A stretch of DNA of 64,000 nt from Gemmatimonadota bacterium (GTDB lineage Bacteria; Latescibacterota; UBA2968; UBA8231), in assembly GCA_002712305.1 (NCBI GenBank), contig PATE01000063.1, forward strand, positions 54,984 through 118,983. The letters are read 5' to 3'. The position numbers and the translations under genes are program-made. Numbering within the stretch: the stretch's first letter is position 1; each line of letters begins with the position of its first letter. The notes below the pieces were generated by a model, which had not been told where the DNA came from, ran no database searches, and worked only from the letters and a program-made list of their open reading frames with translations. Shown in pieces: positions 22,705 to 27,886 of the stretch.

Positions 22705-23739
22705 TCAGTCGAGTCCATCGAGGGCGGGTGTTTCCAACCCGAGTTCATCGGCGTAGGCAAACAGCGCCGGTGTTCCTCCCGTGTGGAGGAAGACGATGGT
22801 ATGGTCCTTCGTCCACCATCCCCGATCGATGTGGGCCATCAGGCCTGCCATGGTCTTGCCCGAATAGCAGGGATCCAGCAGCAACCCTTCGGTCTGTGCT
22901 GTGACCTGCAAGGCCTGTTGGGAACCTTCGGTGACAATCCCGTATCCCTCACCGACAAACTCTGCATAACTCTCCAGATCTTTTGTTGTCACCTCGACAT
23001 CAAGGTCGAGAATCCGGGCATGTCTTTCGGCCAGTTCCACATGTTGTTTCGCCGCCTTCTCGTCGTCGCGCTCGCTTGGGCTGACCCCCACAACTCGCCA
23101 CGGCAGGCCCAAGGCACGCGCCGCCACGACAAGCCCAGTATGCGTGTGGGCACCTGAGCAGACGTAGATCGCATCGGGTGTTACGTCCATCGACTGCAGT
23201 TGATCGTAGAGTTCGCAGAAGCCGTCTACATAGGCGATTCCCCGATAGTCGGCACCGTCAGACGAGGTGTTGAAGGGGCGGCACCCTTCGTCGCGAAGAC
23301 GCTGCATCGTCGCCTTCACCGTGTCGCCTTGCTCGTTCATGGGCGGCAGGTTGATCTCGGCCCCAAACAGGTGACTCAGCAACAGATTACCCTGCAGTTG
23401 AGCATGAGAATCCTGCCGACCGACGATGACAGATCGCAAGCCGAGACGGGCGGCGACGGCGGCGGTCTGACGGGACTGATTCGATTGGGCCGCTGCGCTG
23501 TGAAGCAAGACATCGCACTTGGCTTCCACGGCCTGGGCGATGGAGTATTCGAACTCTCGGATCTTGTTTCCACCCATGGCCATCCCCGTCAGATCCTCTC
23601 GCTTGATGAGGATTCGGGGACCGCCGAGGGACTCACTCAAGCGCGGGGCCTCCTGCAGGGGGGTCGGCAGCGTCGCCAGCGACAGCCGTGGCAAGCTCGC
23701 CAGTCGCTGCCGCAGTTCAGAGACATCATACGTGGTCAA
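22705..23739 (-). CDS. PLP-dependent ACC deaminase / D-cysteine desulfhydrase family enzyme
   Basis: 344 aa; LIKREDLTG...GGNKIREFE (PLP lysine motif of the DcyD/ACCD family). Confidence 0.8.
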   Translation of the reverse strand: MTTYDVSELRQRLASLPRLSLATLPTPLQEAPRLSESLGGPRILIKREDLTGMAMGGNKIREFEYSIAQAVEAKCDVLLHSAAAQSNQSRQTAAVAARLGLRSVIVGRQDSHAQLQGNLLLSHLFGAEINLPPMNEQGDTVKATMQRLRDEGCRPFNTSSDGADYRGIAYVDGFCELYDQLQSMDVTPDAIYVCSGAHTHTGLVVAARALGLPWRVVGVSPSERDDEKAAKQHVELAERHARILDLDVEVTTKDLESYAEFVGEGYGIVTEGSQQALQVTAQTEGLLLDPCYSGKTMAGLMAHIDRGWWTKDHTIVFLHTGGTPALFAYADELGLETPALDGLD

Positions 23740-23774
23740 GGGCGTTTTCTCCTCGAGAGGCAGGGCATTGCCAC

Positions 23775-23805
23775 GCGTAACTTCACGCCCTACATTCAGT
23801 TACGC
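23775..23805. promoter_or_regulatory. 8-bp perfect inverted repeat GCGTAACT-N15-AGTTACGC in the divergent region upstream of the PH-ABC exporter
   Basis: Seen directly in sequence; ~90 bp upstream of the ABC start at 23892. Confidence 0.3.
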
Positions 23806-23891: not shown

Positions 23892-26255
23892 ATGCCAACA
23901 CCGACCCCCCGAACCACAGGAGTCCGGCCCCCAGTTTTGGATCTCGTCGAGCCCATCCCCGAGCATCTCGACACCCCTCTGAGGCAAGAACTCCACCCGG
24001 GCGAACTACCCCTCGTCCTTCTGATCGCCGACATCGCTACTGACGGCAACTTTGCCGAATCGGTCCTCACCGTCACCGATGAGCGACTGCTGATCCTGCA
24101 CGCCAACGGATCCGACGTGCCCGTCGTGGAGAGTATCTCCATCGATCGTGTTTTGCGCGTGCAGACACGGAATCACGTGGGCAGTGGGTCTCTGGTGGCC
24201 GACCTCGACGAAGGAACGCGCGAATTGGTGCGTTTCTCGCAGGGCGCCTACTTCAAGTTCTCTTCTGTGCCGCAGGCGGTCGAGGCACTTCTGACCCGTC
24301 CGTCTGAAGAGATTGCCGAAGAGCCTGATGCGGAACGCGCCATACCGCCGCGCCGCATCGAACACTGTGAAACGTGCGGCCGTGCCCTCAAACAAGGCAC
24401 GAAGGTCTGCCCGAACTGCATCAAGAAACGGGAGACATTCTGGCGCCTGTTCTCTTACGTTCGACCCTACAAGAAGATCGCCCTCTTCGGCTTCGGGCTG
24501 ACCCTGACGATGACCTTCGTCGGTCTACTGCCGCCACAGTTGAACCTGATCCTCATCGACGATGTGATCACGCCCGTCATCGTCGAATACATGGAGACAG
24601 GCGCCGACGGCATTCCGAAGCAGAAGCTCACTCCCGATGATCCAAAAACGCCACCCGCCGAGCAGGCAAAGCTGCTGATCTGGGTCGTGGCAGGGCTTTT
24701 CAGCATTCACTTCGGCCGCTTGCTCATCAACGCCACCCGCTCCTATACCCTGGGCTGGCTGGGCCAGCGCATCACCTACGATCTGCAGACGGAGATCTTC
24801 AACTACCTGCAGTTCCTGTCCCTGTCGTTCTATTCCCAGCACAGTACGGGCCGCATTATGACGCGGGTGACCAGCGACACCGAGCGGATGCGGGGCTTCA
24901 TCACCACCGGCTTTCAGGACATGGTCATCGCCATCCTGACCCTGATCGGCATCGGTGCGATGCTGTTCTGGATGAACTGGGAGCTGGCCCTGCTGGCCTT
25001 GATCCCCACGCCGATCATGCTCATCGTCACCCAGATCTATCGCAAGCGCATCCACTGGACCTTCCATACGATCTGGCGCCGCATCGCTTCGTTGAACTCA
25101 CAGCTGGCCGACACGATTCCCGGCGTGAAGGTGGTCAAGGCCTTCGCGCAGGAAGATCGCGAAAGGAAGCGCTTCGATCGGCGCAACACCGAGCTGCGTG
25201 ACTCACGCATGGAGTCGGTGAAGATGAAGGCGTATTTCGTTCCCGGCATCGCCTTCATCACCGCCATGGGATCGGTGATCCTGTGGTGGTTCGGTGGCAA
25301 CCGTGTTTTGGAGAACACCCTTTCTCTCGGTCAGCTGCAGGCATTCATCGCATACATGGTCATGTTCTACGGTCCAGTGCGCGAACTGAGCGTCCTGTCC
25401 GATCAACTCGAATCGGCGGCGACGACGGCAGAGCGGGTCTTCGAGATCCTCGACACCGAACCCGACGTGACCGACCCCGTCGACGCCACCGACCCGGGCG
25501 TTCTGCAGGGACACGTCGAGTTTCGAAATGTGTCGTTTACCTACGACGGTTTCGCCCGAATTCTCGACCGCGTCACCTTCGATGTCGAACCGGGTGAAAT
25601 GATCGGCCTTGTCGGTCCTTCCGGTGCAGGCAAGTCAACTCTCGTGAATCTGATCTCCCGCTTCTTCGACGCCTCCGACGGCGACGTCTACATCGATGGT
25701 GAACCGATCACCTCATTACAGCAGGGCAAGCTTCGCTCGCAGATCGGTGTGGTCTTGCAGGAGCCGCTTCTGTTCCAGGGATCGATCGCACAGAACATCG
25801 CCTATGGTCGACCCGACGCGCCGCACGCCCGCATTATCGCCGCCGCGCGTGCTGCCAATGCCCATGACTTCATCATGAGATTCCCGGACGGCTACGATAC
25901 CGAAGTCGGTGAACGTGGCGGACGACTATCCGGCGGTGAGCGCCAACGGATCTCTATCGCCCGGGCTCTGATCTGCGAACCTATGATTCTGATTCTCGAC
26001 GAAGCGACCAGTTCAGTGGATACGGAAACCGAACACGAGATCCAGGAAGCCCTCGAGCGACTCACCGAGAATCGCACGACCTTCGCCATCGCCCATCGCT
26101 TGTCCACACTCAAGAATGCCGATCGGCTCTTCGTCATGGACAAGGGACGTATTGCCGAGGTGGGCACACACGCCGAATTGCTCGAGAAAGAAGATGGCGT
26201 CTATCGACGACTCGTCGATATGCAGACCGAGTTGGCGAAGGTGAGAGCCGTGTGA
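23892..26255 (+). CDS. ABC exporter (fused TMD-NBD, MsbA-like) with ~180-aa N-terminal PH-like domain and CxxC...CxxC zinc ribbon
   Basis: 787 aa. Residues ~190-480 form a 6-TM exporter domain. NBD Walker A GPSGAGKST, signature LSGGERQRISIARAL, Walker B ILILDEAT. N-terminal extension contains HCETCGRALKQGTKVCPNC. Confidence 0.85.
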   Translation: MPTPTPRTTGVRPPVLDLVEPIPEHLDTPLRQELHPGELPLVLLIADIATDGNFAESVLTVTDERLLILHANGSDVPVVESISIDRVLRVQTRNHVGSGSLVADLDEGTRELVRFSQGAYFKFSSVPQAVEALLTRPSEEIAEEPDAERAIPPRRIEHCETCGRALKQGTKVCPNCIKKRETFWRLFSYVRPYKKIALFGFGLTLTMTFVGLLPPQLNLILIDDVITPVIVEYMETGADGIPKQKLTPDDPKTPPAEQAKLLIWVVAGLFSIHFGRLLINATRSYTLGWLGQRITYDLQTEIFNYLQFLSLSFYSQHSTGRIMTRVTSDTERMRGFITTGFQDMVIAILTLIGIGAMLFWMNWELALLALIPTPIMLIVTQIYRKRIHWTFHTIWRRIASLNSQLADTIPGVKVVKAFAQEDRERKRFDRRNTELRDSRMESVKMKAYFVPGIAFITAMGSVILWWFGGNRVLENTLSLGQLQAFIAYMVMFYGPVRELSVLSDQLESAATTAERVFEILDTEPDVTDPVDATDPGVLQGHVEFRNVSFTYDGFARILDRVTFDVEPGEMIGLVGPSGAGKSTLVNLISRFFDASDGDVYIDGEPITSLQQGKLRSQIGVVLQEPLLFQGSIAQNIAYGRPDAPHARIIAAARAANAHDFIMRFPDGYDTEVGERGGRLSGGERQRISIARALICEPMILILDEATSSVDTETEHEIQEALERLTENRTTFAIAHRLSTLKNADRLFVMDKGRIAEVGTHAELLEKEDGVYRRLVDMQTELAKVRAV

Positions 26256-26749
26256 CCGAGTCGACTCAATCCACGGACGGATTTCTCGATGCCAAGTCGA
26301 TCCGCATCGAACGCAGCGAAGCCCGTACCCTGACCGTCCATATCGCTGAGGAGCGATACGAAGACGTCAGCGTCCGCCGTGCCTTCCCACTGGAGATGGC
26401 TGACGCCTTTATCGGTTTGATCGGTGCTGATGGGAAGGAAATCGGGATTATCGAGGACATGGCCTCGATGGAAAGCGGCAGTCGAGAAACCCTTGAAGCG
26501 GAGTTGCAGCGAACCTACTTCCTCCCCGTGATCACCGACTTTGGTCACTTGGATGAGGAGTTCGGTGTCATCCACGCAGAGGTGGAGACAACCAGCGGCC
26601 CACGCCACATCGAGATCCGCGGCATTCGCAGCAACATCCGACTTCTGTCCCGGCAACGAGCATTGATCGAGGACACGGATGGCAATCGCTACGAACTGCG
26701 CGACTATCACCGACTCCCAAAGCTTACGCGCGAGATCCTCGGACTTTAG
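26252..26749 (+). CDS. DUF1854-like hypothetical protein, translationally coupled to the ABC exporter
   Basis: GTG start overlapping the ABC stop (GTGA), SD-like gaaggtgag upstream; 165 aa, acidic. I recall this fold family sitting next to ABC exporters, but could not check. Confidence 0.55.
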   Translation: MTESTQSTDGFLDAKSIRIERSEARTLTVHIAEERYEDVSVRRAFPLEMADAFIGLIGADGKEIGIIEDMASMESGSRETLEAELQRTYFLPVITDFGHLDEEFGVIHAEVETTSGPRHIEIRGIRSNIRLLSRQRALIEDTDGNRYELRDYHRLPKLTREILGL

Positions 26750-26780: not shown

Positions 26781-27886
26781 TCATCCGCATCGAAGTCCGA
26801 CCGGTAGCTGCGTATAGGCCTGGCTCTGACGCATGAACTCGGCGCGGGTCTCGGTCGTCGGCTCAGCGCGCCACGCATTGTAAGCGTCGAGCATGCGATC
26901 CAGGGCATGCTCCTGGATCGCGGGCAGTGCCGCCTCGTGCGCACCGTGCTCCAGATGAAAGGCTTGTCCCCGAGATAACCGCGGAAGCAGATCGAGGTGG
27001 TGGCGAGCCATGTGATCGAGGACGCCATGGTAGGTCTCGAAATCGTTGGCGAGAGGATCGTTCGCCCCAACCATCGAACAATCCAAACGCGATCATCCGA
27101 TGGTCGGCGTTGGCGCGATAGACATCTGCCTTGGACCGATCGGATCCGCCATCCTCCGCCTTACGCTGCACGTCCGTCGGAGACATGGCCAGATGATCGG
27201 TGGTCTCTGTATAGAATTTCCCATCCACCACGCCGTGCAGCAGTCCCGCCATATAGACATTGACCTCCTCATCACCATCAGACTCGCAGTCGGTTTCGAT
27301 TCGAGACGTCAGATAGGCGTTGAGGAGGAAGAAAAACATGTTTTTCTGTTCACCGTTGTTGAGATCGACATACGTGGGACTGTCCATCGGACCATCTCCG
27401 TATCGACGGCGATAGGTGCTGCATCTTCGATAGGATAGCCATAGATCCCGCAACTGATGGCGGGGAATGCGATCTGGGCGATCCGGGCCTCGGCGGCTAT
27501 GGCTAGGCTCTGGCGATAATAACTGGCCAGTAGCCGTGCGTCGTCATCAGTGCCTGAATAGATGGGGCCGACGGTATGGATGACATGACGGGCGGGAAGG
27601 AGGTGGCCACTGGTCAGGCGAGCCGCTCCAGTGGGGCAGCCCCACCCAGGGCTCGACATTCGGCAAGCAACCCTGGCCCGGCGGCACGGTGAATGGCACC
27701 GTCCACACCACCACCGCCGAGAAGACGCGAATTGGCCGCATTCACGATCGCATCAATGTCCAGGCGGGTGATATCACCCCGCAGGATCTCTACGCGATCG
27801 GCGACGTCTCCCGGGTAGTCCCGGCGTGTCTCGATGGCACTCTGCATGCGCACTCCATCAGCGAGCGGGGCGACGGAAGGTATCAC
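26781..27886 (-). pseudogene. macro-domain (O-acetyl-ADP-ribose deacetylase, YmdB/MacroD-like) gene interrupted by frameshift(s), with a 3' region of unclear relation
   Basis: ORF 27614..27886 encodes the macro N-half ([36 protein letters not shown]). ORF 27309..27659, in the -1 frame, encodes the C-half ([25 protein letters not shown]...[12 protein letters not shown]). Comparison to YmdB (GDCPTG) implies a 1-nt loss in a GGGGC context near 27630. Two further mutually shifted ORFs follow downstream (26863..27453 and 26781..27086). Confidence 0.6.

Follow-up and report, generated by a model that had tools for sequence, protein, structure and literature searches.

What a translationally coupled ABC exporter and DUF1854 protein transport, and whether the two act as one machine, are the questions raised by a gene pair in the window (the whole 64-kb stretch of DNA analysed). 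Exporters of the DUF1854 type are common in environmental bacteria, yet to our knowledge no structure, substrate or biochemical assay is available for any of them.

The longest open reading frame of the exporter runs from an ATG at 23892..26255 (+) and encodes the 787 aa given in the preliminary description. The frame itself stands but its length probably does not, since every relative begins at xDLVEPIP, the position corresponding to residue 16 of the window ORF in the alignment, and the ATG at 23892 is unconserved even in the closest relative. Translation therefore likely starts at the TTG at 23937, giving a gene at 23937..26255 (+) that encodes 772 aa (the numbering used below unless noted). 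The product is a predicted ABCB/MsbA-type (type IV) ABC half-transporter, presumably working as a homodimer. In agreement with the MsbA-type architecture proposed earlier, Pfam matches above threshold delimit a transmembrane domain of the type IV or ABCB-like exporter fold at 24636..25379 (+) (ABC_membrane PF00664, 158.5 bits, E=3.7e-46) and a nucleotide-binding domain (NBD) at 25563..26012 (+) (ABC_tran PF00005, 117.3 bits, E=1e-33), the latter with intact catalytic motifs, namely Walker A (GPSGAGKS), signature (LSGGE), Walker B (ILILDE) and H-loop (AHR). Six hydrophobic segments were found in the transmembrane domain; TM1 lies upstream of the ABC_membrane match at about residues 181–199 and is followed by an extended TM1–TM2 loop. 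The top PDB sequence matches of the exporter are ABCB1, Sav1866, TmrAB and MsbA, covering residues ~231–769 with E-values down to 1e-167.

Structure prediction of the region N-terminal to this core yielded the PH-like fold that had been anticipated from the sequence. Residues 1–122 (23937..24302 (+)) are predicted to form a cytoplasmic PH-superfold domain with a helix at 9–18, seven strands across 25–101 and helices at 102–120, corresponding to the seven-stranded antiparallel beta-sandwich and C-terminal capping helix of the superfold. The bPH_3 model PF14470 scored 12.4 bits (E=0.23) on the window exporter, under its gathering threshold of 23, and matches to it do occur in the homologs P0010, P0011, P0136 and P0144. 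PDB sequence searches with the N-terminal region, both as a single sequence and as a profile, returned no real match. As all bPH and zinc-ribbon Pfam matches in the exporter fall under gathering thresholds, the assignments of the PH domain and the zinc ribbon rest on structure prediction and conservation.

The PH domain is followed by an acidic, low-confidence linker (residues ~123–140; 24303..24356 (+)), which has an AF2 pLDDT of 49–56 and differs among homologs in both length and sequence. Next comes a Cys4 zinc-ribbon-like motif, HCETCGRALKQGTKVCPNC (24357..24425 (+)), which directly precedes the helix running into TM1. The preliminary description reported this element as CxxC-x11-CxxC; the four cysteines (C144, C147, C158 and C161) are present and conserved, while the actual spacing is CxxC-x10-CxxC. 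All four are invariant when ten intact sequences, among them the distant Chloroflexi homolog P0014, are aligned over a trimmed N-terminal region, and of 16 diverse full-length members of the family 14 have the motif and two lack it. A family-derived profile gives weak matches to the zinc ribbons of DUF35 (E=0.0027) and bL32 (E=0.009), and Pfam DZR scores 18 bits on the motif, under its gathering threshold of 27.3. AF2 confidence at the motif is ~80, with few regular secondary-structure elements assigned. We thus refer to the element as a putative zinc ribbon.

The downstream partner gene (26252..26749 (+), GTG start) encodes a 165-aa protein that is acidic, as described, with a pI of 4.94. Its suspected membership in DUF1854 was borne out by a Pfam match far above the gathering threshold (PF08909, 114.4 bits, E=4.3e-33, threshold 26.8), in which residues 36–163 align to model positions 1–127 of 130. 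The C-terminal half is conserved and Arg-rich (…VETTSGPRxIEIRGIRxNIRxLSRxRALIEDxDGNRYELRD…). PDB sequence searches with the DUF1854 protein, using the single sequence and a profile, gave no real match, and as the fold has no confident structural analogue, a peptide- or polymer-binding role is proposed by analogy. Using hhalign, we detected neither homology of DUF1854 to the N-terminal domain of the exporter nor an internal duplication, its two halves showing no mutual homology. The two genes meet at a coupling junction (26237..26255 (+)) in which the purine-rich, SD-like AAGGTGAGAG, located 5–15 nt 5' of the partner GTG, is followed by GTGA, so that the DUF1854 start overlaps the TGA of the exporter gene by 4 nt (26252–26255), exactly as first noted. 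Among 36 distinct orthologous junctions, 26 retain a 4-nt RTGA overlap; another four have a 1-nt overlap, bringing the overlapping junctions to 30 of 36, and the others have gaps of at most 10 nt.

The recurrent linkage of DUF1854 to ABC exporters, stated in the preliminary description, is seen in adjacency, in the kept overlap and in gene fusion. DUF1854 adjoins the ABC gene in every one of the related loci L001–L044 that extends far enough to include sequence upstream of DUF1854. Natural fusions with the order N-terminal domain, TMD, NBD and DUF1854 account for six of eight long family members, and as Rosetta-stone evidence of direct cooperation at the NBD end they show that DUF1854 most probably acts together with the transporter. 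Neither accessory element is strictly obligatory, given the two members without the Cys motif and a third clade with a PH-Zn-ABC protein and no DUF1854 at all (L049). At least 261 clusters (50% identity) match the profile of the N-terminal domain at E≤1e-30. Within Candidatus Latescibacterota, the loci compared identify the pair as a core, syntenic gene pair: the identity of the ABC protein across the phylum is 62–87%, similar to that of DnaE and MetAP from the same syntenic block, and synteny extends over the entire SecDF-to-DnaE block, with the pair inside it beside a GT2 glycosyltransferase. We weighed and dismissed the neighbouring PALP, GlcD and GlcE genes as evidence of a functional link, as the synteny of the block is phylum-wide and several loci that keep the pair lack PALP; such phylum-wide synteny provides no functional information from neighbours.

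The Pfam entry for DUF1854 already records ABC–DUF1854 fusions. In two beta-proteobacteria, Price et al. found cofitness among DUF1854, an ABC transporter and cphA/cphA' (bioRxiv 10.1101/072470), and NCBIfam contains the paired equivalogs NF052233, the model of which includes the N-terminal extension, and NF052234, both named "cyanophycin metabolism-associated". The architecture is therefore already catalogued and not new. These two models are the top NCBIfam matches of the window pair, full-length in both cases, and both scores fall under the curated cutoffs: the ABC protein reaches 658.1 bits against a cutoff of 880 for NF052233 (residues 21–782, in the numbering of the longest ORF, to model positions 14–747 of 766), and the DUF1854 protein 77.7 bits against 150 for NF052234, for which another Latescibacterota member scores 69.8. 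A cphA-linked Ralstonia pair used as a positive control passes both (1460 and 234.2 bits). The window pair is thus, by homology, a divergent, cphA-unlinked member of a known, biochemically uncharacterised family. The statement that the family has no known function needs amending in that a cyanophycin link has been proposed for it; for this clade, which fails the cutoffs and has no cphA nearby, it effectively stands.

One reading of these matches is that the pair is the Latescibacterota orthologue of an exporter for cyanophycin or another CphA/CphA' polymer, with the synthetase encoded elsewhere in the genome and the low scores reflecting phylogenetic distance. The shared architecture and divergent-operon geometry of the cphA-linked Ralstonia pair are consistent with this, as are the full-length best matches, and cphA could sit beyond the loci searched. 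We nonetheless consider it unlikely, as the pair falls well short of both equivalog cutoffs and tblastn with Ralstonia CphA1/2 (E≤1e-3) gave no hit in the window (64 kb) or in the ±10 kb around the pair in the 44 related loci; in the distant-clade loci L046–L050 the sole hit, a weak one, was to the MurF-Alr fusion of L046. In addition, a D-cysteine-desulfhydrase-family gene and glcD/glcE-like genes stand where Ralstonia has cphA, and a search of a literature library for cyanophycin together with Latescibacteria found no paper. Decidedly unlikely in our view is a housekeeping, MsbA-like flippase for envelope lipids or glycolipids, in which the PH domain would sense membrane or lipid and DUF1854 would tune ATPase activity. 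Phospholipid head groups are common ligands of PH superfold domains, MsbA models rank second among the NCBIfam matches, and the high conservation of the pair in a housekeeping block beside a GT2 gene would suit such a role; however, the score for the MsbA lipid A flippase equivalog TIGR02203 (482.6 bits) is under its cutoff of 602, conserved gene order is uninformative on function as outlined above, and, judged over the full-length architecture, the cphA-linked proteins are closer characterised relatives than MsbA.

A further reading concerns regulation and turns on the intergenic region, where a conserved block (23768..23805 (+)) lies between the exporter gene and a divergent PALP (PLP-enzyme) gene starting at ~23739 (-). 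In this block a sigma70-like promoter candidate (TTGCCA at 23768–23773, a 17-nt spacer and TACATT at 23791–23796) is interleaved with the perfect 8-bp inverted repeat reported in the preliminary description, GCGTAACT (23775–23782), N15 and AGTTACGC (23798–23805), which is present as claimed. On its own the repeat is mildly unusual, perfect repeats of at least 8 bp arising in 6% of shuffles of the intergenic region, and function is favoured by conservation of the core TTGCC-nn-CGTAAC-N17/18-GTTACG with fixed spacing in nine distinct orthologous upstream regions. We regard it as quite unlikely that the pair is a ligand-gated module in which DUF1854, the PH domain or both sense a small cytoplasmic ligand and the palindrome is the operator of a dedicated repressor. 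The conserved Arg-rich surface motif of DUF1854 does suggest an anionic ligand, and the conserved core, with its fixed spacing, overlaps a promoter-like site. Against this, no regulator gene adjoins the pair in any locus examined, and a palindrome was detected in 23 of the 32 loci retaining the divergent PALP gene and in none of the 4 without it. A second clade carries a different palindrome with a variable spacing of ~8–40 nt and TTTT after it, an arrangement closer to a hairpin than to an operator, and an Rfam scan of the 5' region gave no hit, known riboswitches included. Sensing is, moreover, indistinguishable in silico from cargo recognition. The inverted repeat may thus control the PLP-enzyme gene rather than the exporter, or both, and because of its co-occurrence with that gene its label as an exporter operator is unproven.

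We posit that the two genes probably encode a single machine, a homodimeric, type IV, ATP-driven exporter with two kinds of cytoplasmic accessory module and, in Latescibacterota, a cargo other than cyanophycin; we hold this reading with somewhat more confidence than doubt. Each protomer would carry its N-terminal PH-superfold domain tethered to the TM1-entry helix by the flexible acidic linker and the Cys4 zinc ribbon, and translational coupling would ensure that the DUF1854 protein is made in fixed proportion to the exporter and could dock at the C-terminal (NBD) end of the transporter. The PH and DUF1854 modules may together form a cargo-recruitment or gating platform beneath the NBDs, passing an anionic substrate, peptide-like or polymeric and made in the cytoplasm, on to the cavity of the TMD; alternatively, the platform could restrict ATP hydrolysis to the cargo-bound state. 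The orthologous module of beta-proteobacteria is tied to the product of CphA/CphA', and the Latescibacterota cargo is probably something else, because this copy is divergent, cphA-unlinked and behaves like a core housekeeping pair.

More tentatively, and as a generalisation that we think improbable as a whole, the PH-zinc-ribbon-ABC/DUF1854 module may be a widespread general exporter with PH-like adaptors that recognise polymeric or peptide cargo. Cyanophycin-like polymers would then be one lineage-specific cargo, the essential-like system of Latescibacterota would export another envelope or matrix component, and DUF1854 would be an ABC accessory subunit with a fold of a new class. Mechanistic hypotheses for the family are narrowed by three results, namely the extension with its predicted PH fold and putative zinc ribbon, the DUF1854 fusions at the NBD end, and the clades without nearby cyanophycin synthetases, which comprise Latescibacterota and a Chloroflexi-type clade. 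The name "cyanophycin-associated" should accordingly not be spread past the curated equivalog. The advance is incremental, refining the annotation of a known family rather than revealing a new kind of system.

The closest known systems are the pairs recognised by NF052233/NF052234, such as Cupriavidus basilensis RR42_RS04420 and its neighbours (bioRxiv 10.1101/072470) and Ralstonia wenshanensis KOL96_03340/03345 (CP076412.1), which share with the window a PH-like N-terminus, CxxC…CxxC, a type IV TMD, an NBD and then a co-directional DUF1854 gene. The ABC protein is 39% identical to its Ralstonia counterpart (residues 17–752, including the N-terminal extension) and the DUF1854 protein 33%. Unlike in Ralstonia, where a 22-nt gap separates the genes, those in the window overlap; its TM1–TM2 loop is longer, the C-terminal half of its DUF1854 protein is more Arg-rich, and there is neither a nearby cphA/cphA' nor a score that reaches either curated cutoff. 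With MsbA, Sav1866, TmrAB and ABCB1 the exporter shares TMD and NBD homology and intact catalytic motifs, whereas these transporters lack the ~165-aa extension with PH domain and putative zinc ribbon and the DUF1854 partner. N-terminal cargo-recognition domains are found elsewhere among ABC exporters, as the C39 peptidase of PCATs and the C39-like domain of HlyB-type T1SS ABCs. The window exporter likewise has an extra cytoplasmic domain N-terminal to a type IV TMD, placed to meet cargo before translocation if it has such a role, but in the form of a PH superfold and putative zinc ribbon instead of a papain-like C39 domain, and with no adjacent MFP or OMP partner. A functional precedent for PH-fold modules as accessories of ABC export comes from enterocin DD14, in which the PH-domain accessory proteins DdE/DdF (PHb2/YdbT-like) are essential for ABC-mediated peptide export (PMC8657885); the likeness is functional, as DdE/DdF belong to another bPH family, are membrane-associated proteins in their own right and serve another ABC type without DUF1854. 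Compared with other bacterial PH domains (bPH_3 PF14470; PDB 3b77), the predicted domain of the window is instead fused to a putative zinc ribbon and an ABC exporter.

The two open reading frames of the preliminary description are borne out by the ORF listing, which places an ABC exporter gene at 23892..26255 (plus strand, 787 aa) and a 165-aa ORF with a GTG start at 26252..26749 on the same strand. The junction sequence likewise confirms that the ABC stop and the downstream start share 4 nt (GTGA), preceded by the SD-like purine tract AAGGTGAGAG. The first protein matches the Pfam families ABC_membrane (E=3.7e-46) and ABC_tran (E=1e-33) with all catalytic motifs intact, and the second exceeds the threshold for DUF1854 (PF08909, E=4.3e-33) and is acidic (pI 4.94), as had been recognised. 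The exporter assignment stands but its length probably does not: every relative, both as called proteins and in our own translations, begins with xDLVEPIP, a motif that falls at residue 16 of the window ORF, and the window ATG is not kept even in the nearest relative. The true start is thus probably TTG 23937, giving a protein of 772 aa.

The proposed N-terminal PH-like fold and zinc ribbon were upheld in part. An AlphaFold2 model built on the homolog alignment (pLDDT 84.4) predicts a helix (9–18), seven strands (25–101), helices (102–120), a disordered linker and then the Cys-motif region (pLDDT ~80); the seven strands with C-terminal helices agree with a PH-like domain, but Pfam matches to bPH_3, as to zinc ribbons, are all sub-threshold. 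Two CxxC pairs are present, spaced CxxC-x10-CxxC in the window rather than the x11 originally given, and of 16 diverse family members with full-length sequence, 14 carry the Cys4 motif. A profile of the N-terminal region matched zinc ribbons weakly (DUF35, E=0.0027; bL32, E=0.009). Word-indexed searches with the extension gave fragments only (42 homologs in three sub-clades, 21–62% identity); common to all intact homologs is the order amphipathic helix, beta-rich segment, variable acidic linker, four cysteines and TM1. When 1.84 billion representatives were searched exhaustively by HMM, 1,426 clusters matched at E≤1e-10, and 261 of them passed E≤1e-30; complete sequences were mostly 730–800 aa long. 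The extension is therefore, as judged from these sequences, a family trait and no oddity of the window gene. The extracytoplasmic TM1–TM2 loop (24500–24640; ABC residues ~200–245 counted from TTG 23937) carries many Pro, Asp and Lys residues (…EYMETGADGIPKQKLTPDDPKTPPAEQAK…) and is ~25 residues longer than in the homolog from our Ralstonia control, an ABC/DUF1854 pair linked to the cyanophycin synthetase gene cphA; owing to this long loop, the Pfam ABC_membrane match begins only at model position 37.

Recurrent linkage of DUF1854 to ABC exporters, as stated in the preliminary description, holds across 44 related loci (±10 kb round the pair), where an ABC gene lies directly 5' of DUF1854 wherever the sequence extends far enough. 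The 4-nt RTGA overlap is kept in 26 of 36 distinct junctions and a 1-nt overlap occurs in 4/36, the remainder having gaps of ≤10 nt. Eight family members are unusually long (896–990 aa), and six of these are natural fusions in the order N-terminal domain–TMD–NBD–DUF1854; the fusions place DUF1854 at the NBD end and argue for a putative physical ABC–DUF1854 complex. The pair is also retained in a Chloroflexi-type clade (L047). The names that their sources give the 134 DUF1854 homologs (48–99% identity) go no further than DUF1854 protein from a Latescibacterota or Gemmatimonadota MAG; conserved residues concentrate in the C-terminal half and are Arg-rich, and only a handful of positions are invariant superfamily-wide. 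A third clade (L049, 10001–12244) encodes a PH-Zn-ABC protein without downstream DUF1854, its N-terminal domain at ~30% identity; this exporter gene is fragmented in a long-read contig and adjoins several PhyH-family dioxygenase genes and leuS. One 845-aa protein from the representative search (P0234) comprises the N-terminal domain, TMD, a truncated NBD and a Mur_ligase_C domain; it may be a genuine fusion, or else gene calling may have joined it to a neighbouring cphA-like gene.

Relatives are titled almost without exception Candidatus Latescibacterota, and throughout this phylum the pair sits in a syntenic block of SecDF, ApbE, polyprenyl synthase, GlcE-like, GlcD-like, a D-cysteine-desulfhydrase-family PLP enzyme and ABC–DUF1854, followed by a macro-domain protein, a GT2 glycosyltransferase, MetAP, peroxiredoxin and DnaE; the window and some relatives have an MR/MLE enolase-family gene between polyprenyl synthase and GlcE-like. 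The whole 20-kb block (window 13888–34545) is collinear in most Latescibacterota MAGs examined, an unusually stable order at 50–60% protein identity. ABC identity across the phylum (62–87%) is comparable to that of DnaE and MetAP, by which measure the pair behaves as core genes and synteny is uninformative on function. Downstream, two adjoining minus-strand genes are each split over two frames in the window: one for a conserved 249-aa protein with no Pfam match (26805–27387; residues 1–120 in frame -3 and 154–238 in frame -1, junction near 27028–27059), the other a macro-domain gene (27372–27808; residues 2–59 in frame -2 and 57–149 in frame -1, junction ~27638). The former is intact in L005 (10571–11320) and the latter in L003 and L005 (174–180 aa). 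The split 249-aa gene points to a frameshift, whether pseudogene or assembly error; that two frameshifts lie side by side suggests errors in the sequence here.

The divergent PLP-enzyme gene (22705–23739, minus strand; D-cysteine desulfhydrase/ACC-deaminase family) adjoins the pair in most, not all, loci and forms an apparent operon with the glcD-like and glcE-like genes; its best NCBIfam matches are CuyA (D-cysteate sulfo-lyase) and XcbE, with all scores below cutoff. The 8-bp inverted repeat reported upstream of the ABC gene is present, and a candidate sigma70-like promoter is interleaved with it. By itself the repeat is weak evidence, as 6% of shuffles yield an equivalent one; TTGCC-nn-CGTAAC-N17/18-GTTACG is, however, the best-conserved stretch of the intergenic region in nine distinct loci, with fixed spacing and arm sequence kept. 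A second Latescibacterota clade carries another palindrome, GGGCAAAC…GTTTGCCC then TTTT, at ~-155 nt from the ABC start (L008, L024, L031, L036–L038, L041 and others); its varying spacer (roughly 8–40 nt) gives it more the look of a hairpin than of an operator. An Rfam scan of the upstream element matched no family. Of 32 loci with the divergent PLP-enzyme gene, 23 have a palindrome of one type or the other, two degenerate forms included; none of the four loci without that gene has one. The inverted repeat is a conserved cis-element of the shared control region, which may serve the PLP-enzyme gene rather than the exporter, or both.

The pair is best read as encoding a homodimeric type IV exporter whose accessory platform in the cytoplasm, made up of a tethered PH domain and zinc ribbon plus a DUF1854 subunit at the NBD end, would recruit or gate cytoplasmic cargo. 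Less likely alternatives are that the pair is a lipid flippase of the MsbA kind or a module gated allosterically by a ligand. For the exporter with an accessory platform, the most plausible guess at a cargo is peptide-like or polymeric anionic, by analogy with the CphA link in beta-proteobacteria and with enterocin DD14, for whose ABC export PH-domain accessories are essential (PMC8657885). Price et al. (bioRxiv 10.1101/072470) report that DUF1854 shows cofitness with cphA/cphA' and an ABC transporter in two strains, Acidovorax 3H11 and Cupriavidus basilensis 4G11; our literature search found no other paper that mentions DUF1854.

The pair could also be a true cyanophycin orthologue with cphA located distally. 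NCBIfam equivalog models exist for both proteins (NF052233, NF052234), the ABC model spanning the N-terminal extension too. Against these models the window ABC protein reaches 658 bits (cutoff 880) and its DUF1854 partner 77.7 bits (cutoff 150), compared with 1460 and 234 bits for the Ralstonia control; a second Latescibacterota pair and two fused proteins likewise fall under the cutoffs. Queries with Ralstonia CphA1/2 gave no match in the 64-kb window or the 44 related loci, and nothing but a weak match to a MurF-Alr fusion in the distant-clade loci L046–L050. With sub-cutoff scores and no CphA match in the window or related loci, the window pair is assigned by sequence to the same architectural superfamily, outside the curated cyanophycin-associated equivalog, and the Latescibacterota cargo is probably other than cyanophycin. 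Overall, what was initially observed is confirmed and its interpretation partly supported, in a family already catalogued with a published functional proposal. In the annotated Ralstonia megaplasmid locus, cphA-cphA' and ABC-DUF1854 are divergently arranged, as is canonical, and the ABC protein encoded there shares 39% identity with that of the window over residues 17–752 and likewise carries its own CxxC-x10-CxxC; the window copy is a divergent, cphA-unlinked member.
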